Shown one piece after another: positions 1 to 62,743 of a DNA stretch of 64,000 nucleotides. Each line of letters begins with the position of its first letter. Within the stretch, counting starts at the first letter, position 1. The stretch is from assembly GCA_012295275.1 (NCBI GenBank), contig CM022667.1, forward strand, positions 5,952,001 through 6,016,000, given 5' to 3'. A program made the translations under genes and the position numbers. The DNA is from Chrysomallon squamiferum (Eukaryota; Animalia; Mollusca). The notes beneath the pieces were generated by a model. It was not told where the DNA came from, did not search any database, and saw only the letters and a program-made list of their open reading frames with translations.

Positions 1-888
1 TGTGTACAGCTCTGTAAAACTGGTTCTTAATAGCCACATAAGAATGAGTTTTGTGTTTGCAGAAACAAGACTGATGTTTCACAGATGTTCATTTTGTAGC
101 TCTATGTGAGCAGTAAAACAAAGGTTTCAAAAATATATTTGTAAAGTGTGCTGACATTATTTCCAGCTTATTTTTATTCATTTTCATGTACAGAAACCAC
201 ATTTGAAAATGAACACTGCCTGTTTACATTTTAGCACTAATACAGGCTCAGCATCTACTTTTTTGCATTAATTTATCAAAGTGGAATAATTATAATAGCA
301 AAACAAAAATTATACAAAATAAAAATAAAAATAACACACAAATATATAAATGTGAAAATTCACCAATAATATTACAATATAAATAACAAATAACTAAACG
401 GTTTTGGATTTTTCTCCTGGATGAGCTTACTTAACACCATTGTACAAATATATGTATAAAGATGTAGAGTAACCTATGGACTGATCACTGCAGTTAGTCT
501 CTTAGATGTCATAACAAACAACAAGTGCACATCATTGAAACAGGACACCTTATTCTCTGATACTGAATTATCATAATACTTATAATGAGATAATGTGAGT
601 AACTATAATAATAATAATAATAATAAACACAATAAGTAAATAAATCTTAAAACAGACCAATATTTAATATGATGAATTTAAGAAAAACGAAAGACCTATT
701 AATTGTTTCATCCATTCAAGTGTGATTCTTCAAAGATATACTTAAATTAATGATTCTAGTCTTAGAAATTAAATTATTAGAATAATTATTAGAATGATTT
801 GTTTGTTAATTTTAATTTATTTCATGAATATTTTTATTTTCTTGCTATAATTAACATCTTTTTCATAAAAATATAATTATTTACTTAC

Positions 889-2280
889 TACTCATTTCTA
901 ATCTCAGTGGTTTACTGGACATTCTAGCAGTATTCAGTTTACAAATCCAGTCTGTGACATCCTGATCTGAAGCTTTGTTAATTGTCAGAGAATACTTCTT
1001 AGTTGTTGACAGTCTGCTGTTTGTCCCATCTCCACACTCTACAGAATAACTCTGTCTGTCAGCTGGAGGATTCCACACAGAACACTGATCTGGTTTCTGT
1101 CTGAGTGAAGCCAAAGCCACATTACCACCATCTTTAAAAAATACTATTCTGTCTTGAAGATTTTCAGCACCTGACACTGTACAAGTCAGAGTAAACTGTT
1201 TGTCTTTGACTAAATGAGATGAAGATCCAGACAAAGTCAATGAAACACAATCTGTAAAATAAAATTGAGAAAATTAAAAAAACACAAAAAAAACCAATTG
1301 TATTCATTTATTCAGTTTTTATTTGTTTATTAATTTATTTATGGTTAACATTATTATTCAGTATTTCTAATGTAATTAACTCTATGGTTATTTAAGATAA
1401 TGAGAGAAGTGACATCATCATTCATGGAAAATGATGCTATTTTTAACTGGCAGCAATGTCTGTGTGTGTGTGTTTTAACCACATTGAAAAGAAAATATAA
1501 AGTACAAACTATGGCTATTAATGGTCTTTGATGGGAAAATCATTACATGAAATGCAGCTGGAATGAACACTATAGAAATTGTGTAAAGTGCAGTATCTGT
1601 ACATTGAATTAACAAAGACATATAGTTCTACCTGACTTACTATCATCATGCAGCAGTTGAGCACAAATATAGATCAACAATATTAGAAAAATCTTGTTCA
1701 TGATTGCAAAATGAAAGTTTTTATTATTGTTTTCCCTTCCTATTACAGTTTAGATATATACAGTTTTAGGAAATTTAGTATTTGTAACATTTTGGGGTGT
1801 GTATTCCATTCATGTTGTAAATTGTTAATTACTCTTTAATTAACATAAACATTCTTTTGAAATTAGAAACAAAATTAGTTTTATCTATTGAAATATCTCA
1901 TGAAAAAAGAAAAATCAATACATAAAAACTGATAATAAAAAAAATGATATAATAAGTTAAAACATTTGTTTGAATTTTAGTTATAGTTAAAGATCACAGT
2001 GCAAATGTATATTGAAAATATGTTTCAGTATTACTCCATTCACTAAATATTGAACAATATATATATATATAATGAAACAAAACTCAGGAAAATGCGGCAG
2101 CTATCATACGTATGAATAAAATAATGTTAATTTTCGCAGCTGATAACCAATAAAAATTAAGTGTGAAGAGGTTGGGTTTTATTAAACAGTTTCTGTAAAT
2201 TTACCTGAATACGTAACACTGCTCAAGAAGAAAACCACTAAAATCAGTTTCTTGTCGACTGTAGAAAACATCGTAGACAT
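889..2280 (-). CDS. Gene A (5' part; continues off the left edge): IgSF receptor with V1-type head
   Basis: Signal-peptide exon 2205-2280 (MSTMFSTVDKKLILVVFFLSSVTYS+G, donor GTAAAT). V-like Ig exon 889-1251 (363 nt, phase 1-1, TTTTACAG acceptor, GTAAGT donor; FTLTC...DVTDWIC). Paralogous to genes B and G. Confidence 0.85.
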
Positions 2281-5348: not shown

Positions 5349-8300
5349 TCAGCCTGTGACTTGTGAGTTTTCATAGACGGTGAGTACAGAGTATGGTGAG
5401 TCTTTTCTAGCTTCCAGTGATGAGTAATTGTTTGTAGTATCTGTGTTTCTCTCAGTATCTGAAAAATAGTCTTGATTACACAGTTGTACAGAAGTAGTTG
5501 TGACAGTATTTCTAATAAGGTAAAAATGTAACAGCGACGATAGAGGAAACAACAGAGTTGTTCTGTTGTATCCGAGTTCTCTGATAAATCGCTGAAATAA
5601 TATCTTTTTTTTAGAAACTACAACATTTCATCACAGATAGAAACCACAAATGTTAATATAAAACATGAATTATATATACGTCCAATGATTATTTTCCTTC
5701 TTAATAAATGTATCTGGTTATATGTAAAAATAAATGTAAATGCATTTTGTAGATTTTTATGTTTATTTTTTACCCCAGTAACAGATCACATCCTTTACTG
5801 ATAATAAACAATGTAACATATACAAAGTACTGTAACATAACAACAAAAAACAATATTTGTATTTTATATACATATTTCTCAGTTACCCTGAAAACAAAGA
5901 TCACAGACTTACAGACGGTCTGATTTAACCGCTCAGATTCGCAGAAACTGTTTGATCTGTTACACTTTGTATTTATATACTGACCTTGACTTTGTTGAAG
6001 ATCGTCATAGAGAGAAGATTCCTGTACTGCAGTGTTAAACTGTCTGAAACAAACAAACCACTGAGAAGTCGGAAATCTTGGATTTTATTTATTTAAACTA
6101 ATTTAAATTTGTGTGCATTGTTATGTGTAATATTTCCTCCATATTGATTTTCAGTTTGTTTTTTTTAAATTCAAATTTTCCATATCCTTAATATGTCAAA
6201 ATAACGTAATATTTAATTAGAAATGAAAACGGCTGATATTTATTAATAATTAGTCACAAATTTGGTTTTTATTTCTTCCTTAAATTTTTACAACTTACCT
6301 TGATGTGTACGTTTGGTCAGACTTAAACTTTTCTAAAACAAAAATAATATTAAGAATGTTAGAAATGTAAAACAACATCTCTTATTAATATATGTTTTAC
6401 AACAGTTATTTAGAATTCTTAATTATTTACTGTGATAAGCAGGATTAATAATGTTCCAGCATTTGAGGAGAAAGAATTATTGTTTATATACTGTATCTGA
6501 TATCTTTTGAAGACGATAGTGTCTTTGTAAAATTTACCTTTACTCTTCCTGCAGAAAATTAAAACAATTCCTCCAATTAAAAGTTCTGTAGCCAATGTTA
6601 TTCCAATTCCAACACCAATTCCTGTTCCCAGTAAACACTCTTTTCTTTCTGTACTTTCCGAAGATGATGGAACTGAAAAGAATGCGAAAATTCCTGTGCA
6701 ACAGGCATAATACACACATATCTGTTTCGTTTGTTATGTTTTAAGTGCTCTTTTATATAACAGAATACACTAAACATGTAGCGTTATAGATGGAATTTAC
6801 TATGCATAAAGGCAGGATGAAACATAAGCAAACACTTGAGTATGTAATATTCCATTTTTTCATTCACCATTTTAAATTAATTTGTTCCTTCTACAAAAAG
6901 TGGACATAATAGAAATTGTTATATTACTGCAAATTAAAATATGCTCTTCTTTCACAGAAGTTTTGAAACCAACTTTGTTAAAAGCCAAAACTTGAATTAG
7001 ATGTGGATAAACAGCATAAATCAATTCATATTTAAATACTATTCACATTATGTAATATTAAACAGATGGTAAAATAAATTACCAAAAATATATAACTCTT
7101 TTTTTTTTTTCAAAAAAAACTCTTCACTTAAAAAGGTACACAAGTTTAATACAATCATTTATTTATTTCATTTATCACCTTATTTATTTATTTAAATTCT
7201 AAGTGTATTTTTAACAGAAATTAGCTACCTGTTTCATTCAGGGATAATTTCAAGATAAGCTCTTTCCTTGGTTCTCCATTTGACACAGCAACCTGATAGA
7301 TTCCAAAATCTTCTTGTTTGACATTTGTCAGTTTATATTCACCTACAGCAGACACATTTGTAGTGTTTACAGGTTGTATAGATCCAAGACTTTTATTGTT
7401 TACATCTGTGAATTTATACCAGGTAAATGTTGGAACTGGATTGGCAATCACAGAAATGTGTAGAGTTACATTTCCACCTTCTACAGCAGCAAATTTGTCC
7501 TGAACTGTAACTCGATGATCCAGTCTTGGTGAACCTATAGGAAATAATGTTCTTGTTACTAACATACAAATGATAAAATAAAATAAATTTAAATTAAATA
7601 ATTGTATTTAGTGACTTACATGTAACATTAAGCTGCATACTTTGTCTGACATCAGACTTGATGTTGTTTCCTGCTTCACAAGTGTAAAATCCTGTATCCA
7701 GACATTCAGCTTCATTCCAGCTGTACTCCACTGACTTGGAGTTTTTCACTTCACGTAGAATGTGTGAGTTGTTTAACAGTTTGATGTGAGATGCTGGATT
7801 ACTGTCAACTTCACATCTTAGATACGTAGGAGTCAGTTCATCAACTGTTATCTTTGTAGACTTTGAGTTTAAAGTGAAAGAAGTTACTGAAGTCTGATCT
7901 GTAACAAGTAAAAACAATATGTTGTATTTTGTCAAAAAGCGTTCATTATTAAGTAAGAAGGTTTATACTCATGAAGTGGACAATTGTTTTAATCATTTAT
8001 TTACTCGGTTTTTAATTAATCATTTCAATTTTTTATATGTAAGATTACATGCTTTAAATAATTGAAATTAGTCATGGTTCTACAAACGTCTTTGAAGTCA
8101 CTGAACGAAAAGCAGGGTCTACAGGAAATATAATTGAAAACCTGTTCTATAATATCAATCTGAAATAATAAGTGAATATCATGTGAACTCAACCTGAACA
8201 TAATTATATCTATCTATCTGCCTATCTGTCTGTATGTGTAATACAGATTATTTGTAATAGTTAATAATCCCATTTAATGCCAGGAAAATACAGTTAGTTG

Positions 8301-11300
8301 CATTGATAGTGGTAAATGGTTTGGAGGTGATGGTGGCAATGGACAAAGGGGATTAACTCTAGGTGAGTGGCCCAGTCCAGTATAAGCGGCACATACGCCA
8401 GAAATCAGTCGATTCCATTCAACAGCCATTACAGCCACTGCAGAACAAATTCCCACCCACCAACAACATAAATATGAATGTCATATTCATAACACTGTTC
8501 TCGAGTTTTTCAATTTTGCACGGATTAACAGCAACAGAATCCTGTTGACCAGAGCATGAAAGCCAGATCGACAAGATGCCACCATCATCATCGGCATCAT
8601 GATCAAGGACTGCCGGTTGAAAAAAGTAAAACCAAATGAATAACAATTCATTTTCCTACAATATAAAAAATGTAATGGGTTCAGACAATTTATTTTGTCT
8701 CACTAATGGTGGGACACCTAGGGGACATCTACAGAGCAAAGTTTCATGTGGCTCAGGTTAGGTTCCACCTACTGAACCACAGGGAACAGATCCAAGGATT
8801 CACTGAAGTATGCCAGAGGAATCCACTCCACCTTTGGGGCCGAAGGGAAATGGTTCATTCCCACCCATGAATTTTGCCGAGGGGGTTAAGGTAATGTAGA
8901 TATTTGCCAATTCTCTGACTTAAAGGTCAGGAGCACTGACGAGTCACATACATATCATATCATAAGGGCAATCGGTGAGTCTCCAGGGGTCCCAGGTTAT
9001 TTATAAATTCTTCTTTGGAATTTCTCTTGCTTCTCAACTCATATGATAATTAATATACACATTTTTATTTTATTTTACTTTATTTATTTTTTATTTTTAT
9101 TTTTTTTACTGATTTTTTTTACTGATTTATTTATTGAATTTTGAAAAAAATTTATCTGCCAACTTGAACAAAATCTCTTGTTCCTCTTGTCCACTTTACG
9201 ATGTATTACAAAACACATATTTTTATTTGGAATTTGTTGATTCCTTCTAATTTAAACGTTTAAGTTTGTATAAACATGAGCTATGCAACTCTTGTTTTCA
9301 TTAAATTCATTCATTTACGTTTTTACACAAACTAACAGGGTAAGAAAGAGAAAATAATATATACATTTTTAAAATTTATATATTTTTTAAACAGCTAAAC
9401 TGAACATTATTACAGCTGTGTACCTCAAAATATTAAAACTTCAAAATAACTATAAACATTATAAACATGAATCTGATTTTGACAAATCTTTTACAACTGA
9501 ATCTTTTGCCACCATTTTCATTTCTTTCTTTTTGTTTCTGCTTCTTCTTTTTTCTTCTTTTTCTTTCTTTTCAACTAGTATAATTTTAAAAAAGTATTTG
9601 TATAACGTTGTTTTATTTAATTAGTATTATTTTTTTTTAATAAGTATATAATATATAATATTTTTCTATAAGAACATTTTTCATTTCATTATACATTTAT
9701 ATATTTGTCAAAACATTTCTTAATGTTAAAGTATAAACCCTATTTAGGAAATCAAATTCTGTAAGTTTACTTACATTGAACATCCAAGATAACAGTTTTG
9801 TTTTTTGACTTGTTTGTGTTTACATTGGTGACAATACACACACAGACTCCAGCCTCTGTTCTGTGTATTTGTGTAAAAGAAAGTACGTCATCGTTTATTT
9901 CCTTTGTCTGACACTTCCACTTGTAAGAGCAGACTTCACCACAGTCTGCCTCACACAAAACAGCCACGTTTTTACCTTCTACTATCTGTACTGGTGAACT
10001 TCTGTTCAGTTTAACGTTTTCTGGACCATCTGAAAATGCAGTTAAATTAATTAATAATTATTGCTCTCTGTATTAAAACAGTGTACATGAATATGTGTGT
10101 GAGGGTGTGTGTTCCCAAAGAAGAGAGAAATGTTTTATTTAATGATCATGAAGACAAAGAAAAGAAAACAACATACTTTCAAGTGATTAATTTTTGTGTT
10201 ATTGTTTTGTTATTTTTTTTTTTTTTTTACCAATTTTAAGTAACAAAGTACAATGCATAAAAAGGGTTCAGTTATCAAGGATCTCGTACTGTTATTATTT
10301 GTAGCAGTGGAATACTCTATTAGAAAGTGGACACATTTTATTGTTCTTCACAAAATATTTTGTTTTAATGTGTGATCAAACAAATTTTTAAGACCGTATA
10401 TGCATTTCTAAACAAAGACATATGTTATTTTTCATTTCTCTAATAATCCTGTTTTAATACAAATTAAACAAAAGCCAGATTATTGCTGCTTCTACAAACA
10501 GCCTTCAACTTTTGTTTTTCTTTGTAAATATCAAGCAAATTCAAAGAAACATATGCAACTGTCAGTATGTCATCTTAATTAAATTCAGTTTGTGATGCAA
10601 GAAAACTGAAATATGCAAATATTTTTAACAATACTATTTTTTTGTTTTATTTTGCATAGAGCTATTACTGGACATCTATCAACAACAACATCATCAACAT
10701 TAACAACAACAACAATAATAATAATAATAATTAAAATAATTATATAAAATAATTTGAAAACATACAAAAAATTAATTTAGATCAATTATAAATACATAAA
10801 TTTCTAAGATTATTTTTAAACAAAACTCACAGTATACTTTCAGAGTGAAACTTTTAGTGAGAGATTTGGCTGAGACTCTGTTAGTCACAGTACATGTGTA
10901 CTTCTGTCCTGTCTGGTTTCTTCTCACATTTGTAACACTGACCTGAGACCCTGACTCAGTCTGTTGATTGTTAAGTGACCAGGAAAACAAACATGGCGGC
11001 TTGCAGACAGCAACACAGTTTACATTCAAATCATCTCCTTCTTCAACATTTCCTGGTGAAGTCAGCTCTACACTGTCTGGTCCACCTAAAAATAAAATAA
11101 TAATACTTCAAATAATAACAATAATAATAATAAAAAATAATAAAAAATACTGCTACTACTACTACTAATAATAATAATAAAAAATTTAACATGTGATCTT
11201 TTAATTTGCTAAAGATAACTTCCATTAATGACCATATGTTAAGGTGTATATTACATTTGCTGATATGTAATATGCATTAGAATAAACAATTACTGCTTTT

Positions 11301-13597
11301 ATAACAAAAAAATGTTTTCTAGAACTATGCTAATTTTTAATTTCAATGATGGTTTAACCTGAGACAAAAGTTAGAAATGCAAGGTAAGACAAAGACCCCA
11401 GTCAGAAAACTGTATAGGACAAAAGACACTCCATACTGTTTCTCATCTGAACTTTTGAATTGTTTCCATTTTGTAAAATCTGTCAAGATTATATCATTAA
11501 TATTTTCAATTTAATTTTTTGGGAGTGAGAATCTATATATTATTTATTTGTAATCTTAGTACAAAGTGCTTTCGGAAATTATAGTCAGTTTTCAAAGATA
11601 CATTATTATGCTTTGATATAAAATATCATTTGAAACTGTATCCTTAACCCTAATTATGATTATTAGTAATTAATTATGTTGGTTAAACATATTAAATTGA
11701 TGAACATGCCATTATTATTCTGATTTCGATAAAGAGATGTAGTATATATAATTTAGGCAGTTTGTAGCAGAGCTATCTATGGGTGGGCAGTTTGTCAAAC
11801 ATTGTTTAGTGTTGTTTTTCTCTGGGGGCTTTTGTTCTACAAAAATCCACTGAGGAAGCTTATGTCCTACAAACTATTTAACCTTATATATATATATGGA
11901 CACTTGCTTGCACATATATACACATACACACACATATATTCTCAGACCTCCTTTCATGTACACAATCACAGACAAACAAGATTTTCAGAATGGCAGATTT
12001 TTTGAGCTCGAGCTACAGGTTTGTAGTCATGAAAAAAAAAAAAAAAACTATTTGACTGAAAACTAGCACTATTTGTAAATAAGAGATTATTATGAAGTAG
12101 ATCTAATTTTCTGAAATGCACCATTATTTTTATCATTATTTAATGTATTTGAACCTAGTAGTTAATAATACAAATTAAACTTGACACTAGTATAAACTAA
12201 ACTATTAATAAACCTAAACTCTGATTATTCACCTGTGTTTGTTTGGTGATCAGCTGTTTTACTCCTGTACAAGTATTAATTATATTGTACACCTATTTTT
12301 TTTATTCTTTAATAAAATAGCAAAATAAATATCAACTATTTATGAGCTGATACAATTTTCTTTTTTTCTTTTCTTTGATCGTCTTGCAATACTTGAAGTT
12401 TATCAAAGTGGAATTGATATAATAGCAAAAAAAAAAAAAATAATTAAGTAATTAATAAAAATAAAAATAAAAATAATAATAATAAATAACATTAGAATAA
12501 TTATAAATCAAAAATGTCTTTCTTCCTTGTTCATTTTATTAAAACTGTACAAAGAAATGTATATTAACATTGTTCAAAAATGTATACAATACAAATGTCC
12601 AAATATATGTACATTAACACTGTAGAAAGAAATAATTTTGACATTACACAGATATATGTATATCAACATTGTATAAAGATATATTTATTTCAGAGTAATC
12701 AATGGATGGGTCATTTTTCTTCAAAGCAAACAAAAATAGCACATCAAAACAGTACATGATAGTCTATGATCTTCAATTTTCATAATGATTATCATAATGA
12801 TAATAACAATAAACATAATAAACAAATCTTAAAACAAATTATATTAAAAAAAAAAGTATGATTCTTTCAACATATTACAATTAATCTAAAATTGTGCTGC
12901 CAATCAGATACACTAAATTTAATTATTATATTTATCATTCACTGTTTCAGGGAATATAGTTTAATTCATTTTATGAATACATTTTATTTTCTTACTACAA
13001 ATAATATCTTTGTTATAAAAATATAATTATTTACTTACTGCTCATTTCTAATCTCAGTGTGTTACTGGACTCTCCACCAGTATTCAGTTTACAAAACCAG
13101 TCTGTGACATCCTGATCTGAAGCTTTGTTAATTGTCAGAGAATACTTCTTAGTGGTTGATAGTCTGCTGTTTGTCCCATCTCCACACTCTACAGAATAAC
13201 TCTGTCTGTCAGCTGGATAACTCCACACAGAACACTGATCTAATTTCTGTTTGAGTGAAGCAAAACTCCCACTACCACCATCTTTAAAAAATACTATTCT
13301 GTCTTGAAGATTTTCAGCACCTGACACTGTACAAGTCAGAGTAAACTGTTTGTCTTTGACTAAATGAGATGAAGATCCAGACAAAGTCAGTGAAACACAA
13401 TCTGTAAAATAAAAGATAAAATCTTTGTTTTCAGTATATCTGTTTCTTCTTAGTTTCTCAGATTGTTTCTTCTTCTTTTTAATAACATTATCATTCAATT
13501 TTTAATTTGGAAACTATTTAGTATCTGGTTATTTCACAAAATAAGTATTTAGAGGGAGTTGTTCATTTACAATATTTCATTACACTAAATCCAATTA

Positions 13598-16295: not shown

Positions 16296-16998
16296 CAAAT
16301 CAAAAATTAAAATGTAAAAAAGTGTATCAAATCTTTTATAAATATCAGAAGTTTGTACTTATAAATAATTCTTTTCTGCAGTTTGTGAATATTTTAAAAA
16401 TTACTACATAACAATTAATTATTTAAAAACAGATAAAATGTTTTTAGCTAAATTATTTTCACAGGCAGAAGTATTAAATGTAATTATGTATTCATAATTT
16501 AAATGTGACCAAAATTATGCCTGGTTACTAACAGATGTTGTTGAATCCTACAAAACGTATCATATTTATCTGAAAATTAATAAATATATCTAAACTGTAA
16601 TCAGAGAGGAATATGTCAGAGGATGTCACAGATCAAATCAGATTTTAATTCTTACTTTTCAGAGGAATATCTTTAAACCTGAAATAATTATAGAACGTTT
16701 AATTAATAGTGTTAATTTTATTATTATTATTGTTTTAATATTAAATTAATTTTCAATTTCACATGTTCTACTTTAATTCCATACTTTTAAAAAATAATTA
16801 TAAAACAATAAATAAATAAAATAAGGAAAAGGAGGTAGCTACAGTGACTCTGAATTAAAGTAAAATAATTTTCACAGCTGACAAGCAATCGAGACAGAGA
16901 GTCAAGAAGTTTTAACATTTTGTAAATTTACCTGAATACGTAACACTGTTCAAGACGAACACCATGAAAATCAGTTTCTTATCAACCGTCGAAAACAT
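5349..16998 (-). CDS. Gene B: complete IgSF receptor SP-V1-Ig2-Ig3-Ig4-Ig5-TM(Glu)-ITIM/ITAM tail, lacking an intact FN3 (about 620 aa)
   Basis: Exons: SP 16932-16998, V1 13039-13401, Ig2 10831-11085, Ig3 9775-10029, Ig4 7620-7898, Ig5 7229-7534, TM 6538-6672, tail1 6299-6332, tail2 5985-6043, last 5349-5458 (TGA). All GT-AG with compatible phases and an open frame (1863 nt). Tail: [67 protein letters not shown]. Confidence 0.88.
6928..7003 (-). pseudogene. Remnant 3' end of the FN3 exon in gene B
   Basis: Translates HLIQVLAFNKVGFKTSVKEEHILIC then a GT donor. Homologous to the FN3 ends YLIRVLAFNKFGFKHFTKEKEIFVC (C) and [25 protein letters not shown] (D). The first ~75 codons are missing. Confidence 0.8.
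8280..9030. other. GC-richer unidentified insertion in the Ig3-Ig4 intron of gene B (possible decayed element)
   Basis: Composition clearly differs from the AT-rich flanks and it is not seen in the equivalent intron of gene G. Only short ORFs, no recognised motif. Boundaries approximate. Confidence 0.35.
13601..13714. repeat. (AAT)n microsatellite; others at about 16221-16274, 19252-19308, 21441-21530, 22586-22633, 61363-61450, 62670-62739
   Basis: Read directly. These explain the poly-N/Y/L ORFs in the ORF track. Confidence 0.95.
14340..14584. repeat. 20-bp minisatellite (ctgagtgaactcctaactac), about 13 copies, intron 1 of gene B
   Basis: Head-to-tail copies with some 16-bp variants and no spacers. 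The paralogous site in gene G (about 62074-62114) has 2 copies. Confidence 0.92.
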
Positions 16999-20003: not shown

Positions 20004-21229
20004 CTATCTCTGACTTGTGTTTTCATAGACAGTGAGTACAGAGTATGGTGAATCTTTTCTTGCTTCCAGTGATGAGTACTTGTTTGTAGTATCCGTGTTT
20101 CTGTCAGTATCTGAAACCAGATATGTAATAATTGCACATCATGTCTTATACAGTAGTAGAAATAAAAGTAATATCAGAAGTAATGGAAGATCAGCACACA
20201 AGGTACATAGCAATTAAAATAGTTGTCTGTGTGTTGATCAAAGAATGAAATTTAAAGATTAGTTATGTTTTTCAAAATATAACAGATCATTTTGACTAAG
20301 ATTTTGTATTGTGCCTAGTCCATTTATAATTCATAATTATATATTCATGGTTGTAGAGACATAATCTATGAATCACAAAATATTTTATTACTATAGTTAC
20401 AGTGAGCAGATTGATATACCATCTGTCTTTCCTGTCTAGCCTAGACAGATTTGATAATAGTAATTAAAATCCTGCTATTTTAGCTAAATGTTATATTTTT
20501 ATACAAAAAAAAAAAAAAAAAAAAAAAACAAATACTATCACAGACTGTATTTATGCTGATTTTGATTACTTCTCTCTTTCAGTTATTTAATAATTTATTA
20601 TTATTTTTATTTATTTATTTTCTCTATTCTAAAACTAACAGATTTTACTGACTTTGACTTTGTTGAAGATCGTCATAGAGAGAAGATTCTTGTACTCCAG
20701 TGTTAAACTGTCTGAAACAAACAACACTTTCCCATTATTTAATTATTTTAGTTTTGAGTATATTAAAATAACATCTTTAAGATAAAAAAATAAATAAATA
20801 AACAAATAAATAAATAAATAAATAAGCAAAATTAATAAAAGGATTTAAAAAAATAAATTTAAATAAAAAAATAAATTAAAAAGCAATAAATTTGTGTAAT
20901 TATTAAGTGAACTGAACATGTAGTGATAAACAATGTATGTTTCATATCAGTTTAACTTTGATCTTTATTTTGGTGTCTCAATATACTGTAATATTAAATA
21001 CCTTTGTGTATAGATGTGATCTGTTATACACTTCTCTAAAATAAAATAAAAAATAAAAATTAAATGTAAAAGAGGTGAAATGACATTAATTAGATCATCA
21101 GTCCTGATTTACTATAAAATTACAAACATATTAATAACAATAAGAAACAACCATCAATTAAAGAGAAATATTTAAGAAATTATGTGTAAAGAAACAAGAA
21201 AAATAAATTCATTTGAATGTAGGAGTGCC

Positions 21230-21263
<34 letters not shown>

Positions 21264-21440
21264 TAATAATAAAAAACAAATAAATCAAAAAAGTAAAAAA
21301 GGAAAAAATATTCACTTGTTTTAATGCAGTGAATTAAAATAATAACTGCACCGATAAGAAGAATTGCAAACAGTGTAATTCCAATTCCAATACCAATTCC
21401 TGTCCACAGTAATCTGTCCTTTTCTGATGTACAGTCTGAA

Positions 21441-21472
<32 letters not shown>

Positions 21473-21497
21473 TAATAATAATAATAATAATAATAAT

Positions 21498-21532
<35 letters not shown>

Positions 21533-22582
21533 AAAAATAATAGTAATAGTAATAATCATTGATATATAATTGGAAAAATATTTTCTAGTTGTACCTCAAG
21601 TTAAAGTAACTTGACAATTATTATAAATTTAGCAATCACACAATTATAATAATTCATATTAACGTTTTCTGCAGTTTTACTGTAAAATGCCTATTAAATT
21701 AATATTTCACTGTACTGAAAGTATAAGGGCAATTAAGTCAGTGCAGTAGCTCCAGTCAAACTTTGACTCTTACTCAGGGTAATTATCATCAGTTTCTTGA
21801 AGCCTGTTTGAGAAACTTTTTGTATGTGTCATTGTTAAAAATGTATTTTTAATTGAATTTACCACAAACAAATATTTCCTTTTCCTTGGTAAAGTGTTTG
21901 AATCCAAATTTGTTAAAAGCCAAAACTCGAATCAGATATCTGGTGTTTGGTTGTAAACTAGAAATCTCTGCTGTGTGATTTGTGTGAAGACCTTTTTCAC
22001 CAAACTGTTCAGTGAGATTTGTCCACTCAGATGTTGTGTCTGCTCGATACTGTACAAGAAATGTTTGTTGTGATCCTCCATTAAATTCTTCTGTCCAAGA
22101 CACTGACACTGAATGTGGACCTGTGATCCAAGTTCGCACATCAGAGGGAACAGTTGGAGGACCTTCGAATTAAACATTTTATCACTGGTTTGTTGAAAAT
22201 ACTCAAAGGTTATAAATAAAGGATTTATCTCATATAACTGAATACATGAATATTTAAATGTTTTGGAAACTGTAGTTCTACTTCAGTTGAAATTAAATCT
22301 TTATCTACAATTCTGAAAGAAAAATCATGTTGTTGGTTTGATAATAGTAGAAATGTTTTTAAACTTGAACTTTCAAATCAGATTAATTCATGAAGAAAAC
22401 AGCTAAATGTTACAAACTTATCTGTCACACGCTCAAATATCATTTATGCAAATGATGAACAAGAGCTTCACAAAAGATAGAAATGATATTGAATGACACA
22501 CACATGCACATGCACACAAACATCATTCTGACCTGATACCATACCCATTTTATGTAGAATTTTAACTTTCTTACTATTACTA

Positions 22583-22637
<55 letters not shown>

Positions 22638-25600
22638 TTTTTTTTTTGTCATTTGTGCAGACAATATTTTTAAAAAAAATGAAAATATTTACACTCTGCT
22701 TTTACAAATAAAAAAACATTTTGTAATTACCTTCTTGAGTGAGATTTAATTTTTCCACAAGATCTTTTTTTGATTCTCCATTTGACACAACAACCTGATA
22801 AATTCCAAAATCTTCTTGTTTAACATTTGCTAGTTTATATTCACCTACAGCAGACACAATTGTAGTGAGTACAGGTTGTATAGATCCAAGACTTTTATTT
22901 TTTACATCTGTGAGTTTATACCAGGTAAATGTTGGAACTGGATTGGCAATCACAGAAATGTGTAGAGTTACATTTCCACCTTCTACAGCAGCAAATTTGT
23001 CCTGAAATGAAACTCGATGATCCAGTCTGGGTGAACCTGAAGAAAATAAGTTCCTTATTATTCACATGCCAACAAAAGATATCTAAAACACAAAAATGAA
23101 ATACAAAAAAATGGAATTGCGAAGGAAGACATCCAGGAGAAACATTGTAAATACAAAATTAATTAAACTTTTCCAAATGACAGTAAGTTATATTGGACAC
23201 TGCCTCAGCAATATGGTATTGTGGGAAAAGCAACACTTCAATATAATAGCTGAACAATTAAGACATAATACAGACAGCAAAATTCTGTATCTGCTAGCAG
23301 AAAATACAACTGTATGTAAACAACAAATGTAAAGTAACAATGTGAACTATTCTGAAAAAGTAACTGAAAGAAACTAATTTCAGTAAGGTTTTTTTTATTG
23401 AGATGATAATTTAAAAAGATGGTTGAAAACAGATATGAATAAAATGGTCTTGTTTCCCATTTGTGATCTAGATTTGTTTTCTTCATCAATGCTAAACAGT
23501 TGTTTATATTCACCAGTGAGCTGATTTATTTCTGACTTTTTTGTTACCACTTTGTAACCAGAGGTATACTATTTTATAAGCACATTTTTGTTTCTAAAGT
23601 ATTCATTCTGTTGTACTTATGAAATGGATTGTTAAAATTCTGATACCAAATACTTAAAACGTCACTAACATCAGTTAATTACAACATTTAGTAACTTGAG
23701 GATATAAAATTATAGTGATTTTTTTATTATTATCATGTTTTTTTATTCTTCTTTTTTTTTTTGTATTTTATCTGCATTAAACAATTGGGACTTGTGAAAA
23801 CAGTAATAACAATTATTGTCTGTGAATGTGGTATGGCAGAAGTAACGTAAATGTCTTTTTCTAGTGTATTTTGAAAAACTATATTAATTAACAGACTGCA
23901 TGTCCCAGAAGTACACAATATCTGATTTGGCAAATCAAATAATTATGTTATATGTACAGTTTATAATCAGTTTTTTAATTAAATGTTTTTCTTCAAATAC
24001 TGTTATTTTTCATCTTATTAATTCATGACTTGAAACTGCATCTGCTTGGTTCACATAGCAAAATTGTTTAATTTACTGGTTTTTCAAAATGTTTTCAAAA
24101 ATATACATATGACTATCCTTGAAACACCCCAGAATAAATCTATATTATTAAAGACAAAGAGTGACATACATGTAACAAGAAGCTGCACACTTTGACTGAC
24201 ATCAGACTTGATGTTGTTTCCTGCTTCACAAGTGTAAAATCCTGTATCCAGACATCCAGCTTCATTCCAGCTGTACTCCACTGACTTGGAGTTTTTCACT
24301 TCACGTAGAATGTGTGAGTTGTTTAACAGTTTGATGTGAGATGCTGGATTACTGTCAACTTCACATCTCAGAGACACAGGAGTCAGTTCATCAACTGTTA
24401 TCTTTGTAGACTTTGAGTTTAAAGTGAAAGATGTTATTGAAGTCTGATCTGTAAGAAATACAAAATAATGTGGTGTTTTGAATCAAAAACAATTCAACAT
24501 TAAGTAACAAGGTTTATGTTCAGAAGTTTTAATCATTTATCTATTGGGTTGTTAATTTATCATTTTAAATTTTTATACATAACATTATATGCTGAAGAAA
24601 AAATAAATAAGCAAAGACTAAAAGAAAAGGAAGGAAAAGAAAAAAGAAAATAAGTTTTATTAATCAAAAATTCTATTTGCTTTACTAAATAGCAAATCAT
24701 ATTGTTTGTTGTAAAAATAACTAAAATGTTAAGCATATTAAAGCTAAGCACCAGAATTGAATTTAAGTTCAAACAAAACAATCCAGTATCTAGATATCAC
24801 ACTGTGAAACAAACCATTCTGGAGTCAGTGAAAGAAAAAGAACCAAATAATGAAGAATTAATGGTGATTTTAGGAGAAAAAACATATGTTAATGAAGGAA
24901 AAGGCTCTGCAGGTAATGAACTGATGAAGAATATTATTTGACAGTATAGTAATTAAAACTACTGAAAACATGTTCTGTTATCTCAGTCTGAAATTAAAAA
25001 AAAAAAATGTCATAAAATATATTTTATTTTATTTTACTTTTGCCTGTTTGTATATGATTTTATAGAAAAAAAGGAAGAAAAAACCAACAACAAACTAACA
25101 ACAAAAAAACAAGCAACTGAATCAACATATATATATATACGTACAAAAATAAAACGTTAGTCGCTTTATATCAATTACTTTCATTTAACATTTACTAACA
25201 GATCCTGAAATGTACATTCATTATGTACTTATTAATTAATTTACTAATTAACAAAAATAAACTCACACAGGACATCCAGTGTAACTGTTGTGTAATTTGA
25301 TTTGTTCGAGTTTGTGTTGACAGCTGTACACGTGTAGACACCAGCCTGTGACTTGTCTACATCATTTAAAGTCAACACAGCACTTGTAGACTTTGTGTAT
25401 GTTTTAAACTTCCACGTGAAAGAACAAGATGTACGACAATCTGCTTCACACAACACAGCCACATCATCACCTTCCTGTACTGTCAGTGCAGAACTCACGT
25501 TTACTTTTACACTGTCTGGTCCATCTAAAGTACAAATAAAGTATTATATGTGGTTTTGTGATCTTTCTCTGAATAACACTTACACATTTTATAAAATATT

Positions 25601-28600
25601 TACTTTATTATACATATATGTGTTTATGAATAATAATATTAACAACACACACACACACCCACACCCACACACACACACACACATATATATATTATAAGTA
25701 TTAATATAGGTAAAGACACTGATATGTAGTGACATAGATATTAACTGACAAACACAGTAAAAGCTAATTTTTTATTTAGCTTTCAGATATAACTAATAAA
25801 TAAATTTTCTGAAACTGACAAAACTGATAAGATCAAATATGTGGTTAAAACACATACATTCACAAATTTTGTATTAACTGATATACATTTCTTTGAAACT
25901 AATATATAGGACTCATATTAAAATTCTAAGACCTGGTTAAATCCTCTTCTAACAGATGATCGTGTTCTATGAATTAACATTATTAAACTATACTTACAGT
26001 AAACTGAGAGTGCAAACTGCTCAGATTTTTCCACTGATGTAGTCGGGTTGTTTGCTGTACATTTATATATTTCACCTGTCTGATGTCTACTGATATGTGG
26101 CAGAGTTAACTGAGAAGTTGCAGAAAGTATTTGATTGTTGAGTGACCAGGAATAGGAACATGTAGGATTACAGATAGAAGTACAGGTAACTGTCAGTGTG
26201 TCACCTTCTACAACTGTACCAGGTGATGATGGATTCAGTCTGACACTGTCTGGACCATCTGAATGTGAAACAAGGAAAAAAGATGATTATCATTTGACAG
26301 TTTATAACAGGGACATTCTATAATGATGCCAGATCAATACTGATTTTGGGCATGAATACACTAATTTTCTGACTAAAATTCATAGCTGTGATAGTTTAGA
26401 ATTGGTTTCTCTTTAATTGTACTATAATCATCATTATTTAATGTTTGTTTAAGCTCTACATTAATTATAATTACTGATTACAACTATTGCACTTAAGGTG
26501 ATATTATTTTAAAAATAATTAATAATAAAAATAAAAAAAGAGTAAGAAAAAAAGAAAACAAAAGGCATGAAAAGAATGAATAAAAAAATATAAAAATTAA
26601 AGAGTAAAATCCGGATTAAAACCAGATATTATATTTGCTCTTTTAACTAACAAGGCTTGCAAATGTTGGTAATATTTCCAGTAACTGGGTTTTTTTTTTT
26701 TTTTTAATCAGGCCTAATTTATATTTAAATATCTATCTGTAGAGAATAGTTGGGGAAAAAATAATAAAAAATAATGAAATGAAAAGAAGTATTTTATTAT
26801 TTGGTGATCAAAATCTTATCATTTGATATTACAATTTGTCCAACACAATTATAAATGATAAATGTTTCAAATGATTTAACCATTCTCTTTTTATTTCTCC
26901 CTCATCCATTTCTTCAAATTATAAATTTACTGTAAAATAAATATTATTATTAACAATTTGTATACACACTATTTCCACTTCTAGGAAGTGAGTGAGGTTT
27001 TTATTTTGAATTTCATGAAACATTTTAAACAAATCACATTCTTTCTGTTGATTAACTCATGTAGATAGTGAGACAATTATTCCAATCAGCCTACTGCTTT
27101 TCAGTGGCCTCCATTTTACTGTACAATTATTTAGGAGTCACCAAAGTGAAACTGTTGATAGGTGGATTGTGAATTACAATTATGAATAATGAAAGTATTT
27201 AATTCTGACATTATTATATAAAGATTTAGCAGAAACAGGTGTCTCTGTCAGTTTTCTCTCCATTTCTGTATTTGTTTTGTTGTGCATACCAATTTTTTCC
27301 TTTCTTACCATTTTCATTTTGTATTCATTTCTGATTAGCAAACCAGATATCAATACATATAAACTATTGCTTAAACCAAAGAAGACAAGAATATTTACTT
27401 TCAGAAAGACATGATATAAAATAAGATTTATCTTCATTTGTTGTTTTCTTTTTTTCTCTTTTTCAACTGATGCATTTTACAAAAAAGAACATCTAAATTA
27501 AAACAAATGTAGCTAGCATGATGCCATTTCATGTGAAACTGACCAGCTACCTTAACTAAACAGTCAGTGATACAAAATAATGTTTGTCTAATTTCATCTT
27601 TTTTGTTTAATTGAGGAATTAAATTAAAAAACCACAAAAAAAACACACACAAAAAAAAAGAAAAAAGAAAAAAGAAAGGTATATGAACCAACAATACAGA
27701 AAATGAAAAGAACTTAAATCTATTTTAATATAACTTTTTGCACATAGTTATTACAATAAAAGCAAAATAATAATAAATTAATACAATCAGAAAAATGAGA
27801 GAACAAAAACATAACAACACTCCTCCCACCACAAACAAACAAAAAATAAAACAAAGAAAAGAAAGCAAGTCTCAACTCACATATGTATGGAAATACTCCT
27901 TTAAAAGAATAAATAAATAAATAAATAAATAAATAAAATGAAACCATTCTGTTTCACTAAAAATAAAGCAATTCCCTATAATTGAAGATTTCAAATATTT
28001 CTAGAATGTAATGTTGACAATACAGAAGTCATATGGAAGATATAACACTACATAAATAATGACCAGTGGAAGGAAGGACTCACATAATTTAGTTTTGGTA
28101 CAAGTTGATGGATTTCCATTTCCTCCATCCTGACATCTCCATGTTCCCACATCTGTATCAGTGTTGAAAGACTGAATAGTTAGAGTTATCTGTGTTTGTG
28201 AGTCAGCAACAGCAGAGTAACCAGGTGATCCTCTACACCGAGTGTTGACTGTGTTACACTGTACAACTTGTCTGCCTCCTGGTGCTATGAAGATGATTCC
28301 AATGGTGACTGAACCAGTTATTTTACACACCAACTGTGTACTATGTCCTTGTTGTCCACCACCCATACAGTCAAGTGTTGTAGTAGCCTCACCTGTAATT
28401 ATTATTAAATATCAGTTATATATATCATTTTTAATATTACAGTTATCTTACATTCTGTGTACTTGTTGTACATACAGTCAAGTGTTGTAGTAGTCTCACC
28501 TGTAATTATTATTAAATATCAGGTATATCTATTAAATATCAGGTATAAACTAGTTAATATTTGTTGTTATTTATTATTTGAAATCAAAATAAGTAAATTT

Positions 28601-28805
28601 TGAAAGTACATTGTTTGATAATTCTACTTTCCCACCTGTTAAAGACACTAATCTAGTTTTCGTAGATTTTTAAATATATTTTATCTGCTGAAACATTTTA
28701 ACACTTGAAGTTGTAGATGTTTGTCTGTGTGTCAGAGATTTTACCTTTAACTAGACTCACGAGAGAAATGACGAGGATAACTCCACTGAAGACATTGAGA
28801 AACAT
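20004..28805 (-). CDS. Gene C: complete IgSF receptor SP-V2-Ig2-Ig3-Ig4-Ig5-FN3-TM(uncharged)-ITIM/ITAM tail (about 697 aa)
   Basis: Exons: SP 28745-28805 (MFLNVFSGVILVISLVSLVK+G), V2 28084-28392, Ig2 25998-26258, Ig3 25267-25524, Ig4 24170-24448, Ig5 22731-23036, FN3 21863-22162, TM 21316-21435, tail1 21002-21035, tail2 20653-20711, last 20004-20110 (TAG). All GT-AG, open frame (2094 nt). Tail ends ESSLYDDLQ...[26 protein letters not shown]. Confidence 0.9.
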
Positions 28806-31517: not shown

Positions 31518-32988
31518 TCAACCTGTGACTTGTGAGTTTTCATAGACAGTGAGTACTGAGTATGGTGAGTCTTTTCTAGCTTCCAGTGATGAGTAATTGT
31601 TTGTAGTGTCTGTGTTTCTGTCAGTATCTGAAACATAATCTTGATTATACAGTTACACAGAATATAATTAAAGTAGTAGTATAAAAAAGTAAAGCAGTAA
31701 GTAACACAGTTTCTTCTCGCTGTACTTGAGATCACTAATAATATTTAAAATAATAACTTATCTGTTGTGTTGTGTTATTTTATTTTGTTTGTTTGTTGTT
31801 GCTTTTTTAATTCTCACAAATTACATTTCATGAGCAAATTAAAGACAATAAATGTTAATATAAAATTTAAACAATGTATACTTCTACTGATCATTTTCCT
31901 TCATTTTAAAAATATCAGCTAAATCATAAAAACAAATGAAGTGTAAACATTTATGTTTATTATTATTTTTAATTTATTTTTTGTTGTAGATTGATCCCTT
32001 TATTCTCTACCACAATTCCTGATCAAATCCTTTATATGTTAGTTATTTAATATTAGAACAATAAAATAAGACTTTGTACTTTAGGTATGTCTCAGTTATT
32101 CTGAAAACAAAGAAAGCAGACACACAGCATGTTTCTGATTTAACAGGCAGCTTCACAGAAACTCTTGAATCATTTACACTTTGTATTTATATACTGACCT
32201 TGATTTTGTTGAAGATCTTCATAGAGAGATGATTCCTGTACTCCAGTGTTAAACTGTCTGAAACAAACAAACCACTGAGAAGTGGAAAATTATTAATTTT
32301 GGTTTATTTAATCTATTTCACATCTGTGTGTGTGTACGTGCATGAATACCTACGTGTGTATAGTTTTTCATCCGTAATAATTTCTTTTCTTTTCCAAATA
32401 CCCTTTTGACTAATTAGCATAATATTTATTTTTCAGTTAAAACGAAAACGACTGACACATTGTTTTTCTATTTCTTCCTTAAATTTTCATAACTTACCTT
32501 GATGTGTACGTGTTCTCACTCTTAGACTTTTCTAAAACAAAAAATAAATATTCAGAATATTAGAAATGCGAAATAACCCTTATTAATATTTGTTTATAAA
32601 TGTTACTTCTTTGTTTTGACAAACAAAATTTATAATATTAAAAAAGTTGAGAGGACGAAGCAAAGCACAGTATTCATTATTTGTAAAATAATGTTTTCAG
32701 TTTCCTTGTAAAGTTTACCTTTTCTCTTCCAGCAGAAAAAGAAAACGATTGCCCCAATGAAAAGTTCTATTCCCAGTAATATTCCAATTCCAATACCAAT
32801 TCCTGTTCCTAGTAAACCGACTTTTTCTTGCGAACATTCTGAAGATTAAATAAATGAAAAAGAACGTGTAAATATCCTATAAAATACACAGCAAGTTGGT
32901 TTCAGATAATACATTTTTAATTTATCTGTCTATTAATCTGTGGTTGTGTGTGTGTGTATATATATATATATAGATGTTTATCTGTGTG

Positions 32989-33019
<31 letters not shown>

Positions 33020-35818
33020 CTGAATATATATATAGACAAATAGATAGATACCTATACAAAAATATATTAAACATATACAGTGTTAGCTGAGATTTAGTAT
33101 GATAAGAGGCAGGGCACTTTTTATATAAACAATTTCAAACACTCTAGTATAGTTGTTTATTCGTGTTCTACATTAATCACTTTGTAAATGAAGATTCATA
33201 GTTGCACGAATCAGTTCGAAAACATAAATTCACGTTGTTGCTTTCTTACCATAGATTATAAGATGCTGTTCATTCGTTGAGATTTTGAATCCAAATTCAT
33301 TAAAAGCTAAAACTCGAATCAGATATCTGGTGTTTGGTTGTAAACTAGAAATCTCTGCTGTGTGATTTGTGTGAAGACCTTTTTCACCAAACTGTTCAGT
33401 GAGATTTGTCCACTCAGATTTTGTGTCTGCTCGATACTGTACAAGAAATGTTTGTTGTGATCTTCCATTAAATTCTTCTGTCCAAGACACTGACACTGAA
33501 TGTGGACCAGTACTCCAAGTTCTCACATCAGAGGGAACAGTTGGAGGACCTTCAAGTTTAGAACGTAACAAAATAGTTAGAAACAGAAACTAGTGAACAA
33601 TCAGTTTTGTTTAAGCACTATCGATATTATGCAATATCTATCTATCTGCCTATTTTCAAATAAGGATATACATAATGATCAAAAAATCAGTATTTCAGAC
33701 ACAAACGTTGCTATATTTCAGCACATAATATAAATGAAAACATCTGAAACTGTAACAGTAAGTCTAAGTAGATAATAGGTGTGTGTGTGGGATAGATATT
33801 TTTCATTCCAACTCTATTTTTACCTATTTGACTGAGAGATAAATTAAAGACAATATCCTTCCTGGAACCTCCATTTGACACAACAACCTGATAGATTCCA
33901 AAATCTTCTTGTTTGACATTTGTCAGTTTATATTCACCTACAGCAGACACATTTGTAGTGTTTACAGGTTGTGTAGATCCAAGACTTTTATTCTTTACAT
34001 CTGTGAGTTTATACCAGGTAAATGTTGGAACTGGATTGGCAATCACAGAAATGTGGAGAGTTACATTTCCACCTTCTACAGCAGCAAATTTGTCCTGTAA
34101 TGAAACTCCATGATCCAGTCTTGGTGAACCTGAAAAAGTGAAACTAGTGATTACTGTTATCAATAAGGACCGTATTGAGACAAATATTTGCTTATACAAA
34201 TTTAACTCTATTATAGCAGTAATTTATCATATAAAATAGCAAGACATAACAATGACATTTTTTTTTGATGTACTTATTGATATTTTACTCTTTTTTTTAA
34301 ATAACAATAAAGATGATTTCAAAATAACAAAGTATTTTCATTTTAATATTTTATTAATTAAAATGGAGCTGATTTAAATTACAAAAATATTATGTGGAGT
34401 GTACTTTCTTATTATTTCATTATGAATAATAATAATAAAAAAAGATTACTAAAAAAAAAATTCAAAAAAAATAAAATAAACGAATAACACCCATTCATTT
34501 TTTACTTCTTTTCAATGTAGCATTTCAGATCAGATTTCAACTTAATGTGACATAGAATGACCCATATTTTCGTTGATATCTTTCAATATTATTAAACTAG
34601 TACAAATTATATTACAACATTACATACATGAAACATGAAGCTGCACACTTTGACTGACATCAGACTTGATGTTGTTTCCTGCTTCACAAGTATAAAATCC
34701 TGTATCCAGACATCCAGCTTCATTCCAGCTGTACTCCACTGACTTGGAGTTTTTCACTTCACGTAGAATGTGTGAGTTGTTTAACAGTTTGATGTGAGAT
34801 GCTGGATTACTGTCAACTTCACATCTCAGAGACATAGGAGTCAGTTCATCAACTGTTATCTTTGTAGACTTTGAGTTTAAAGTGAAAGAAGTTATTGAAG
34901 TCTGATCTATAATATAAGTTAAATTCATAGAAAAATATATTGTAGACAGGTTATTATTACTATTTAAATTAATAATGAATAGGTAAAAACTTATGACTAA
35001 CTAATAATAATATGTTAAGTTTAAAACCATATCATCCACACAGAGACACATTTATGGGGATTGATAGAAAATCTAACTTCTAATGTAATATTTGGAATTA
35101 TAAATTCAATGAATTTTAACTAAATATATAACTTTCACAGATTTTAACTGAAAGACACATTGTGAGTTTAGGAAAAGAGAAACCTTTTCATACATTTTTT
35201 ATATTTATAAGTTGTTCTTGTTTTTTTCTTTTTGTTTGTTTGTTTGTTTCTGTTTCTTCTTAATAAACAAACAAAAAAAATCAACTAAATAAAATAATTA
35301 TTCTGTCTTGTGTTCCAGCCACCATAGCAAAATTACTTGAAAATATTTTTCATACGAAATAAACACAAAAGACTGCATTGAAAAATGAATAGAACTTAAC
35401 TATATCACACACACACACAGGCACAAACACGTCCACAATATTAATGTTATTTTTCTTTTACACTGGCATGATTATAACAGTGTGGTTAGACTTTTCTCAT
35501 CCTAATAAAAGCAGTATTAATGAATGAAATTAAAGTTATTAATTAATAAAATAAACTCACACAGGACATCCAGTGTAAGTGTTGTGTAATTTGATTTGTT
35601 TGTGTTTTTGTTGACAGCTGTACACGTGTAGACACCAGCCTGTGACTTGTCTACATCATTTAAAGTCAACACAGCACTTGTAGACTTTGTGTGAGTTTTA
35701 AACTTCCACGTGAAAGAACAAGATGTACGACAATCTGCTTCACACAACACAGCCACATCATCACCTTCCTGTACTGTCAGTGCAGAACTCACGTTTACTT
35801 TTACTCTGTCTGGTCCAT
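31518..35818 (-). CDS. Gene D (3' part; 5' part lost at the gap, probably gene F): Ig3-Ig4-Ig5-FN3-TM(Glu)-ITIM/ITAM tail
   Basis: Exons: Ig3 35561-35818, Ig4 34628-34906, Ig5 33824-34129, FN3 33250-33549, TM 32719-32838 ([32 protein letters not shown]), tail1 32498-32531, tail2 32199-32257 (SLYEDL), last 31518-31627 (TGA). All open and in phase. Confidence 0.88.
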
Positions 35819-36419: not shown

Positions 36420-36820
36420 TACACAGTTGGTGTGTAAAATAACTGGTTCAGTCAGAAAAGGAATAAGCTTCATAGCACCAGGAGGAACACAAGTTGTACA
36501 GTGTAACAGACAAAACACTCGGTGTGTAGGACAACCTGGTTACTCTGCTGTTGTTGACTCACAAACACAGATAACTCTAACTATTCAGTCTTTCACTGAT
36601 ACAGATGTTGGAACATGGAAATGTCAGGATGGAGGAGACGGAATTCCATCAACTTGTGACAAAACTAAAATATGTGAGTTGTTCCGTCCACCGGTCATTA
36701 TTTATGTAGTATTATATCTTCTGTATGACTTTTGTATTGTCAACATTACATTCTAGAAATACTTGAAATCTTCAATTAAAGGGAATTGTTGTATTTTCAG
36801 TGAAACAGAATAGTTTCATT

Positions 36821-36851
<31 letters not shown>

Positions 36852-38147: not shown

Positions 38148-38178
<31 letters not shown>

Positions 38179-46541: not shown

Positions 46542-46580
<39 letters not shown>

Positions 46581-46585
46581 TAAAC

Positions 46586-46624
<39 letters not shown>

Positions 46625-59700: not shown

Positions 59701-59978
59701 TTTTAAAATTAAACTCACAGTGTACTTTGAGAATGAAACTTTTACTGTTAGTCACAGTACATGTGTACTTCTGTCCTGTCTGGTTTCTTCTCACATTTGT
59801 AACACTGATCTCAGACCCTGACTCAGTCTGTTGATTGTTAAGAGACCAGGAAAACAAACATGGCGGCTTGCAGACAGCAACACAATTTACATTCAAATCA
59901 TCTCCTTCGTCAACATTTCCTGGTAAACTGAACCTAACACTATCTGGCCCACCTGAAAAAATAAATAATAACAACAAA

Positions 59979-60029
<51 letters not shown>

Positions 60030-60276
60030 CATAACATAACATAACATAACATAACATAACATAACATAACATAAACAATAAATATAAGTATGCACATTGA
60101 ATAGGACACAACTTGCCCATCTGAAACAATATTATAAATTACAATATTATAAATTACTTGTCACTCCATGTCATCTAAGCAATTAAAGTGAATATTGTGA
60201 AGTCAGAACAGTATTTCATGCGGAAAGTTTATATATATATATAAAATGTGTTTAATAATAATAATAATAATAATAA

Positions 60277-60307
<31 letters not shown>

Positions 60308-61362: not shown

Positions 61363-61415
<53 letters not shown>

Positions 61416-62668: not shown

Positions 62669-62743
<75 letters not shown>

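Follow-up and report, generated by a model that had tools for sequence, protein, structure and literature searches.

The 64,000 nucleotides of Chrysomallon squamiferum considered here (assembly GCA_012295275.1, contig CM022667.1, positions 5,952,001 to 6,016,000; henceforth the window) contain at least seven copies or fragments, called A to G, of one receptor gene, and the cytoplasmic tail of this receptor carries the core of a tyrosine-based activation motif of immunoreceptors (ITAM) followed by a YxN site of the type bound by Grb2. The gene encodes a signal peptide, a V-type immunoglobulin (Ig) domain, four further Ig domains, an FN3 domain, a transmembrane (TM) segment and a tail of three exons. 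The tail with its ITAM core and YxN site is real, expressed and conserved, on a receptor family that is apparently undescribed in snails. The initial annotation of the window had seen in the same tail a tyrosine-based inhibitory motif of immunoreceptors (ITIM) as well and had taken the whole for a self-contained switch. I hold instead, with moderate confidence, that it is the tail of a stand-alone, adaptor-free activating recognition receptor that would work through Syk or Shark and Grb2, and not an on/off switch.

The motifs lie where they had been annotated. On the minus strand of gene B they begin with the membrane-proximal tyrosine (TYTS, 6312), followed by the tyrosine of SLYDDL (6009), YSSL (5426), YSVL (5393) and VYEN (5378), and equivalent sets, with SLY(D/E)DL in the second place, are present in genes C, D and E. 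In each of these genes, GT-AG exons of 34, 59 and 107–110 nt (phases 1/2/1) encode the tail, which extends 68–71 amino acids beyond the TM segment. Evidence from RNA comes from assembled contigs of four runs of one study, placed on positions 5100–9300 at 86% likeness; the comparison covers gene B only, from its Ig4 exon down to the tail. A contig of run X3 joins the TM exon to tail exon 2 (6332/6538, 205 nt skipped), and two contigs of run X1 join exon 3 to exon 4 (5458/5985, 526 nt skipped). The remaining intron, predicted at 255 nt between exons 2 and 3, is implied by a contig of run X3 whose loose end of 12 letters is exon 2; another loose end in that run, of 28 letters, is the start of exon 4 of gene C and marks the junction of exons 3 and 4. 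All three tail junctions are thus supported, two by spliced joints and one through a loose end. Because of these joints, and because the TM exon ends in phase 1, the reading frame of the tail is fixed, and it is the annotated one. An alternative open frame through exons 2–4 was also considered; it is ruled out by the joints and the TM phase, and within exons 3 and 4 of B, C and D it would have 1 synonymous change against 13 non-synonymous.

In the expressed frame, the same two exons of B, C and D differ by 8 synonymous and 6 non-synonymous changes (ratio of non-synonymous to synonymous rates, dN/dS, 0.23; p=0.007), and they are under purifying selection. The annotation held all of the motifs to be conserved between copies whose introns differ. 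This is so for exons 3 and 4, which are 90–96% identical between copies as against 66–80% for the introns (the D/E pair excepted), but not for exon 2, which carries the membrane-proximal tyrosine and is as variable as an intron (62–82% outside the D/E pair).

How far the motifs exceed chance was gauged from 200,000 shuffles of each tail, giving probabilities without correction for scanning. The strict ITAM core (YxxL/I-x6-8-YxxL/I) is found in all four window tails with a spacing of 7, after the TM segment and in the expressed frame, and it arises in only 0.002–0.005 of shuffled tails. At least one ITIM arises in 0.13–0.14 of them and a YxN in 0.31–0.41. The ITAM core is therefore beyond chance; an ITIM alone or a YxN alone is not.

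Relatives of the family come almost entirely from one other vent snail, Gigantopelta aegis. All 18 matches to Ig5 are from this species (44–65% identity), as are 46 of the 51 matches found by a profile search that scored 7,996 candidates; the five others are only 21–28% identical. The G. aegis set examined comprises 47 proteins (the 46 profile matches and P0003). Twenty have no predicted TM segment, and the 27 that do consist of five with the tail type of the window (T1), nine with a second type (T2), eight T2 models that end early and five with other tails. The 20 proteins lacking a TM segment and the eight T2 models ending before the last exon may be incomplete and were excluded from the cassette counts. 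The cassette YxxL-x7-Yxx(L/M)-xx-Y(E/D)N occurs in the same register in 14 of the 27 membrane-bound models, that is, in all T1 and T2 tails. Its T1 form is YSSL-x7-YDVL-xx-Y(E/D)N (with YSPL and YDDL in P0180) and its T2 form YEGL-x7-YAKM-xx-YEN. The first tyrosine (Y1) and the YxN are kept in 14/14 and the second tyrosine (Y2) in 13/14. Over the 18 tails of the two types, Y1, the proline before Y2, the third tyrosine (Y3) and its asparagine are invariant, the leucine at +3 of Y1 and Y2 itself are each kept in 17, and the cassette contains no indel. The asparagine at pY+2 called for by the Grb2 SH2 rule (PMC7337045) is accordingly found in 18/18. Across four window and four G. aegis tails, the four tyrosine columns are invariant, against 24 of 64 columns overall (p=0.017). 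A divergent protein, P0176, supplies a third type: its tail of 235 amino acids has two strict ITAMs, again with a spacing of 7, along with two NPYDDL repeats, and lacks a YxN. The ITAM core with its 7-residue spacing and the Grb2-type YxN, as annotated, are thus genuine elements kept in two G. aegis tail types. The cassette tyrosines recur in the G. aegis relatives; the membrane-proximal tyrosine, found in 2 of 5 T1 tails, was rejected as a conserved site.

Word-based searches, which are insensitive at distance, brought up this tail nowhere but in G. aegis and the window, with the tails of the five distant matches not examined. Tail exon 4 used by itself as a query gave one candidate and no match, an uninformative result, since G. 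aegis tails with the shared NYSSLEAR escaped it. Many of the G. aegis profile matches, and nine of ten matches looked up, sit on one G. aegis scaffold of 53.4 Mb. The RefSeq labels in the family, nephrin-like, syg-2-like and CEACAM5-like among them, are automatic and inconsistent.

At the other end of the receptor, two kinds of V domain are met. V1 (genes A, B and G) gave a structure model with a predicted local-distance difference test score of 96.4, built from 61 sequences; the PDB matches listed for it are entries containing nanobodies or antibodies (TM-scores 0.65–0.77), and the modelled domain folds like antibody V domains. V2 (C, E and F) has no Pfam match. All four combinations of V domain and tail occur: V1 with T1 in B and P0030, V2 with T1 in C, P0011 and P0169, V1 with T2 in P0015 and P0171, and V2 with T2 in P0001 and P0005. 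V1-like domains are also found on tyrosine-poor tails, an ITAM-like pair being present in 1 of 30 TM-positive matches (some of these TM calls are spurious). Five G. aegis proteins (P0019, P0021, P0033, P0037 and P0053) carry V1/V2 domains in tandem, two or three to a protein, with tyrosine-poor tails, are encoded on the same 53.4-Mb scaffold, and are possibly decoys or users of adaptors. The history of the family is a mosaic. The Ig5 and FN3 domains of the window best match G. aegis models outside T1, and the TM segment and tail best match T1. Within the window, comparison of genes B and C (7229–7898 versus the 22731–24448 region) shows nearly identical Ig4 (dS 0.03) despite divergent Ig2 and Ig3 (dS about 1.2) and different V domains, which points to exon exchange.

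On known ITAM biology, a ligand bound at the V domain would cluster the receptor, and a Src-family kinase would phosphorylate the tail. The two YxxL/M sites, 11 residues apart, could then bind a tandem-SH2 kinase (Syk or Shark), the YxN could bind Grb2 and lead on to ERK or PI3K, and the acidic upstream tyrosine (YDDL, YEDL or YEDM) may dock SH2 domains of the Src/Nck/Vav or PI3K type rather than those of a phosphatase. The likely output would be phagocytosis (uptake) or the induction of defence genes. Duplication and exon exchange bring two kinds of V domain together with two kinds of tail, which would vary recognition and keep the signal.

Several observations weigh against this reading. The strict ITAM is present in only 5 of the 14 G. 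aegis cassettes (12 of 14 if Met is allowed), and the acidic residue three before Y1 that belongs to the full consensus (D/ExxY, PMC7026191) is present in none of the 18 tails. P0005 lacks Y2 and P0168 both +3 residues, and each keeps YEN; P0180 carries four repeats of its final tail segment, three of them with Phe for Y2 and all four with YEN. These losses make the YxN, and not the ITAM, the most invariant element. The comparison between species is a comparison with G. aegis alone, and exchange between copies weakens comparisons within the window. Diversifying selection on the tip of the receptor is unproven as well: the V domains have dN/dS values (1.27 and 1.40) above that of the tail (Fisher p=0.004), but these are not significantly greater than 1 (pooled p=0.17), so that positive selection was not accepted, and Ig4 (1.01) and Ig5 (0.88) give similar values.

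The same tail might work as a dual switch, engaging Syk and Grb2 when fully phosphorylated and SHP2 or SHIP, through ITIMs with Ser at -2, when partly so. I consider this doubtful. It draws on the two matches to the permissive ITIM consensus, (S/I/V/L)xYxx(I/V/L), in all four window tails, a number reached or exceeded in shuffled tails with p about 0.006–0.007, on the single permissive match in each of the five G. aegis T1 tails, and on an oyster Ig/FN3 receptor with ITIMs that is reported to act via SHIP2 (PMC11841013). The matches in G. aegis, however, are at another tyrosine, Y1, where the window tails have none. The tyrosine of SLYDDL, annotated as an ITIM, is kept with its acidic +1 and +2 residues in all five T1 tails, but the consensus is found in none of them (-2 is Ala or Pro, or +3 is Met); T2 tails lack this tyrosine and have no permissive match at all (0/9). 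SPYSVL, annotated as both the second half of the ITAM and an ITIM, fits the permissive consensus in the window, where -2 is Ser, and in none of the 14 G. aegis tails, where it is Ala, Lys or Thr. Given three YxxL and a 25–29% content of S, I, V or L, one match is expected 58–64% of the time. None of the ITIM matches in eight T1 tails has I, V or L at -2, as preferred by the N-SH2 domain of human SHP2 (PMC10369915, PMC7337045), which also disfavours Glu at +2 (PMC10369915). The ITIM matches in the window tails are, to judge from these comparisons, likely coincidental, and the inhibitory half of the switch proposed in the annotation is unsupported. Splicing offers one more route to a switch: contigs of a related copy cover intron 3 (5459–5984) in two of the four runs, at depths of about 19 (X1) and 7 (X3), and reading through this intron in D or E would end the tail ahead of the ITAM, with a YIN site gained. 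These contigs could be a retained intron, pre-mRNA or DNA.

The Ig5-FN3-TM layout, together with the RefSeq names nephrin-like and syg-2-like, also recalls adhesion proteins of the nephrin/SYG-2/Sidestep kind that serve recognition between cells (neural, epithelial or self/non-self), in which the tyrosines would dock Nck or Grb2 for actin remodelling and not Syk. The greater constancy of the YxN fits this explanation, as does the presence of V1 on tyrosine-poor tails, yet I find it quite unlikely: the names are inconsistent automatic labels, the profile matches from outside Gigantopelta are remote, the 7-residue spacing is found in three tail types, and the cluster shows rapid duplication, exon exchange and decay. 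Single-copy neural adhesion genes are not known to behave in this way. It is very unlikely, finally, that the tyrosines serve as sorting signals of the YxxPhi type (AP-2/lysosome) by which the receptor is taken in together with its cargo, the YxN recruiting Grb2-Cbl for down-regulation. All YxxL/M sites of the window and T1 tails fit YxxPhi, even in their Met and Phe variants at +3, but sorting signals need no fixed pairing, and the pair stands 7 residues apart without indels in 18/18 tails, while the linkers upstream vary in length.

An activating receptor of the sort favoured here would, on the best reading, work in the manner of oyster CgIgR or of CEACAM3. CgIgR is described as having five Ig domains, a TM segment and one ITAM with acidic-x-Pro before its second tyrosine; it binds bacteria, recruits CgSyk and activates ERK (PMC6994640). 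Its ITAM has D/ExxY and a spacing of 8, no FN3 is reported, and it is described as one gene. The snail receptors, compared with it by description, have FN3, a spacing of 7 and a YxN after the ITAM, lack the acid at -3 and form a tandem family. Human CEACAM3 and CEACAM4 are likewise V-tipped and adaptor-free, bear an ITAM or ITAM-like motif and are described as acting in bacterial phagocytosis via Src kinases, Nck and Vav; in CEACAM3 the ITAM-like motif ends in Met, as in T2 (PMC7026191). CEACAM3 is reported to show positive selection, which the V domains of the snail do not show significantly.

Among clustered invertebrate families, the nearest parallel is Alr of Hydractinia, 41 loci with V/I/Fn3-like domains, ITAMs and ITIMs (10.1101/2022.03.04.482883). 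As described, it shares with the snail family the V-set/I-set/Fn3-like/TM architecture, exon shuffling and tails with ITAM and ITIM, and has fewer Ig domains. The tails of Alr1C/D/H/I/L allow a reading as ITIM plus ITAM, and a splice form of Alr1A replaces ITAM by ITIM (10.1101/2022.03.25.485889). Alr Ig domains lack the canonical Cys and Trp, and snail V1 keeps C23, W101 and C103. Alr is absent among the named matches of the searches with the snail family. The vertebrate CEACAM ectodomain consists of IgV and IgC2 domains and is not known to include FN3, and gene C carries FN3 (Pfam fn3, E=2e-10). Because these features of Alr and CEACAM are not those of the snail receptors, I file the family under neither.

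The annotation supposed that in vertebrate paired families activating and inhibitory motifs usually sit on different paralogues, a weak premise in view of FCRL2, FCRL3 and FCRL5, which carry both in one tail (PMC4950983), catfish IpLITR 1.1b, with ITIMs, an immunoreceptor tyrosine-based switch motif and a YxN (PMC4810170), and Alr. Such a combination is not new in kind (FCRL2/3/5, Alr1C/D), and the switch is unsupported here. The ITIMs of FCRL2/3/5 and IpLITR 1.1b are described as recruiting SHP-1/2 (PMC4950983, PMC4810170); the snail matches are of the Ser type and not conserved. ITAMs unaccompanied by an ITIM can also inhibit (ITAMi, PMC5557797).

Although ITAM-bearing Ig receptors have already been described in oyster and Hydractinia, none in gastropods, and no description of this family, was found among the open-access literature matches listed (one search was poorly targeted). 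The available text of a review of the invertebrate Ig superfamily names the oyster as the only mollusc case of an ITAM (PMC11999971), and that of PMC7736800 does not mention CEACAM. Among the expanded, immune-related families listed for G. aegis is one called 'CEACAM5' (PMC7895826), in passages that mention neither tail motifs nor mixing of V types. It is likely the same gene family as the receptors of the window, because RefSeq labels several of the G. aegis matches CEACAM5-like. A conserved ITAM-YxN cassette on a fast-duplicating, V-tipped family is a candidate basis for innate recognition of a diversified kind in vent snails, where receptors that recognise symbionts are sought (PMC7895826), and it suggests a likely function for the G. 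aegis genes, dozens in number, that bear nephrin-, hemicentin- or CEACAM-like labels. A bolder proposal, which I regard as rather improbable, is that peltospirid-type vent snails have built up a cluster comparable to KIR or Alr, whose interchangeable V-set heads are combined by shuffling with tails of the ITAM-Grb2, double-ITAM or tyrosine-poor type, that their bacterial endosymbionts are recognised and engulfed by its products, and that splicing (skipping of FN3, retention of intron 3 with loss of the ITAM) tunes activation.

Table 1. Receptor genes, exons and fragments in the window. Positions are counted from the first nucleotide of the window.
Feature	Positions	Strand	Remarks
Gene B, last tail exon (e4) and stop	5349..5458	-	Three-tyrosine cassette inside; RNA joint 5458/5985
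Gene B, cassette YSSL-x7-YSVL-xx-YEN (ITAM core and Grb2-type YxN)	5367..5426	-	Register shared by 14 tails of G. aegis
Gene B, tail exon e3 with SLYDDL	5985..6043	-	RNA joint
Gene B, 34-nt tail exon e2, membrane-proximal Tyr poorly kept	6299..6332	-	Joint 6332/6538
Gene B, transmembrane exon	6538..6672	-	RNA joint
Gene B, FN3 exon, 3' remnant	6928..7002	-	RNA contigs
Gene B, Ig5 exon (I-set)	7229..7534	-	
Gene B, Ig4 exon	7620..7898	-	
Gene B, Ig3 exon	9775..10029	-	
Gene B, Ig2 exon	10831..11085	-	
Gene B, N-terminal V-set domain, type V1	13039..13401	-	Structure model
Gene B, predicted signal-peptide exon	16932..16998	-	Like exons preceding A and G
Gene C, intact, ~697 aa: signal peptide, V2, Ig2-5, FN3, TM, tail	20004..28805	-	
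Gene C, tail exons	21035-21002, 20711-20653, 20110-20004	-	
Gene D, 487 aa, intact from Ig3 through to the stop	31518..35818	-	Adjoins N gap 36220-36419
Gene E, inverted near-copy of D	41209..48093	+	Frame-breaking indels in Ig2, Ig4, Ig5
Gene A, predicted signal-peptide exon and V1 exon	887..2280	-	Remainder beyond window edge
Gene G, signal peptide, V1, Ig2-5	56732..63290	-	Tail lost at N gap 56532-56731
Fragment F, V2-Ig2	36420..39478	+	

The genes lie in AT-rich DNA (GC 24–32%) that is interrupted by two gaps of 200 N, at 36220–36419 and 56532–56731. The 5' part of gene D was not found in the window, where the first of these gaps adjoins it. D and E form an inverted duplicate, 94–97% identical with introns included. 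In E, Ig2 has lost 4, 14 and 6 nt in three deletions, and 2 nt are inserted in Ig4 and 5 nt in Ig5; it is either a pseudogene or an assembly error. Since D and E are nearly identical and E is frameshifted, the four tail copies B, C, D and E are not independent. Two segments of about 5 kb, 36420–41359 and 51596–56531, are 99% identical, each beside one of the gaps, and are likely an assembly duplicate; given the gaps with this duplicate and the D/E inverted repeat, the assembly of the cluster may be haplotype-mixed.

Of the FN3 exon of gene B only the last ~75 nt are left. One RNA contig (X2) passes over this remnant and joins Ig5 directly to the TM exon (6672/7229), and with the remnant skipped the gene has an open reading frame of 620 amino acids without internal stops. 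Another contig (X3), about 95% alike, takes in the remnant and reaches its edge, which suggests that an allele or a paralogue retains the FN3 domain whole. The first intron of gene B contains a tandem repeat with a unit of about 16–20 nt (14340–14584). On the plus strand, at 4291–4515, there is an open stretch of 75 codons that resembles a fragment of a Tc1/mariner transposase, with no Pfam match at E 0.1.

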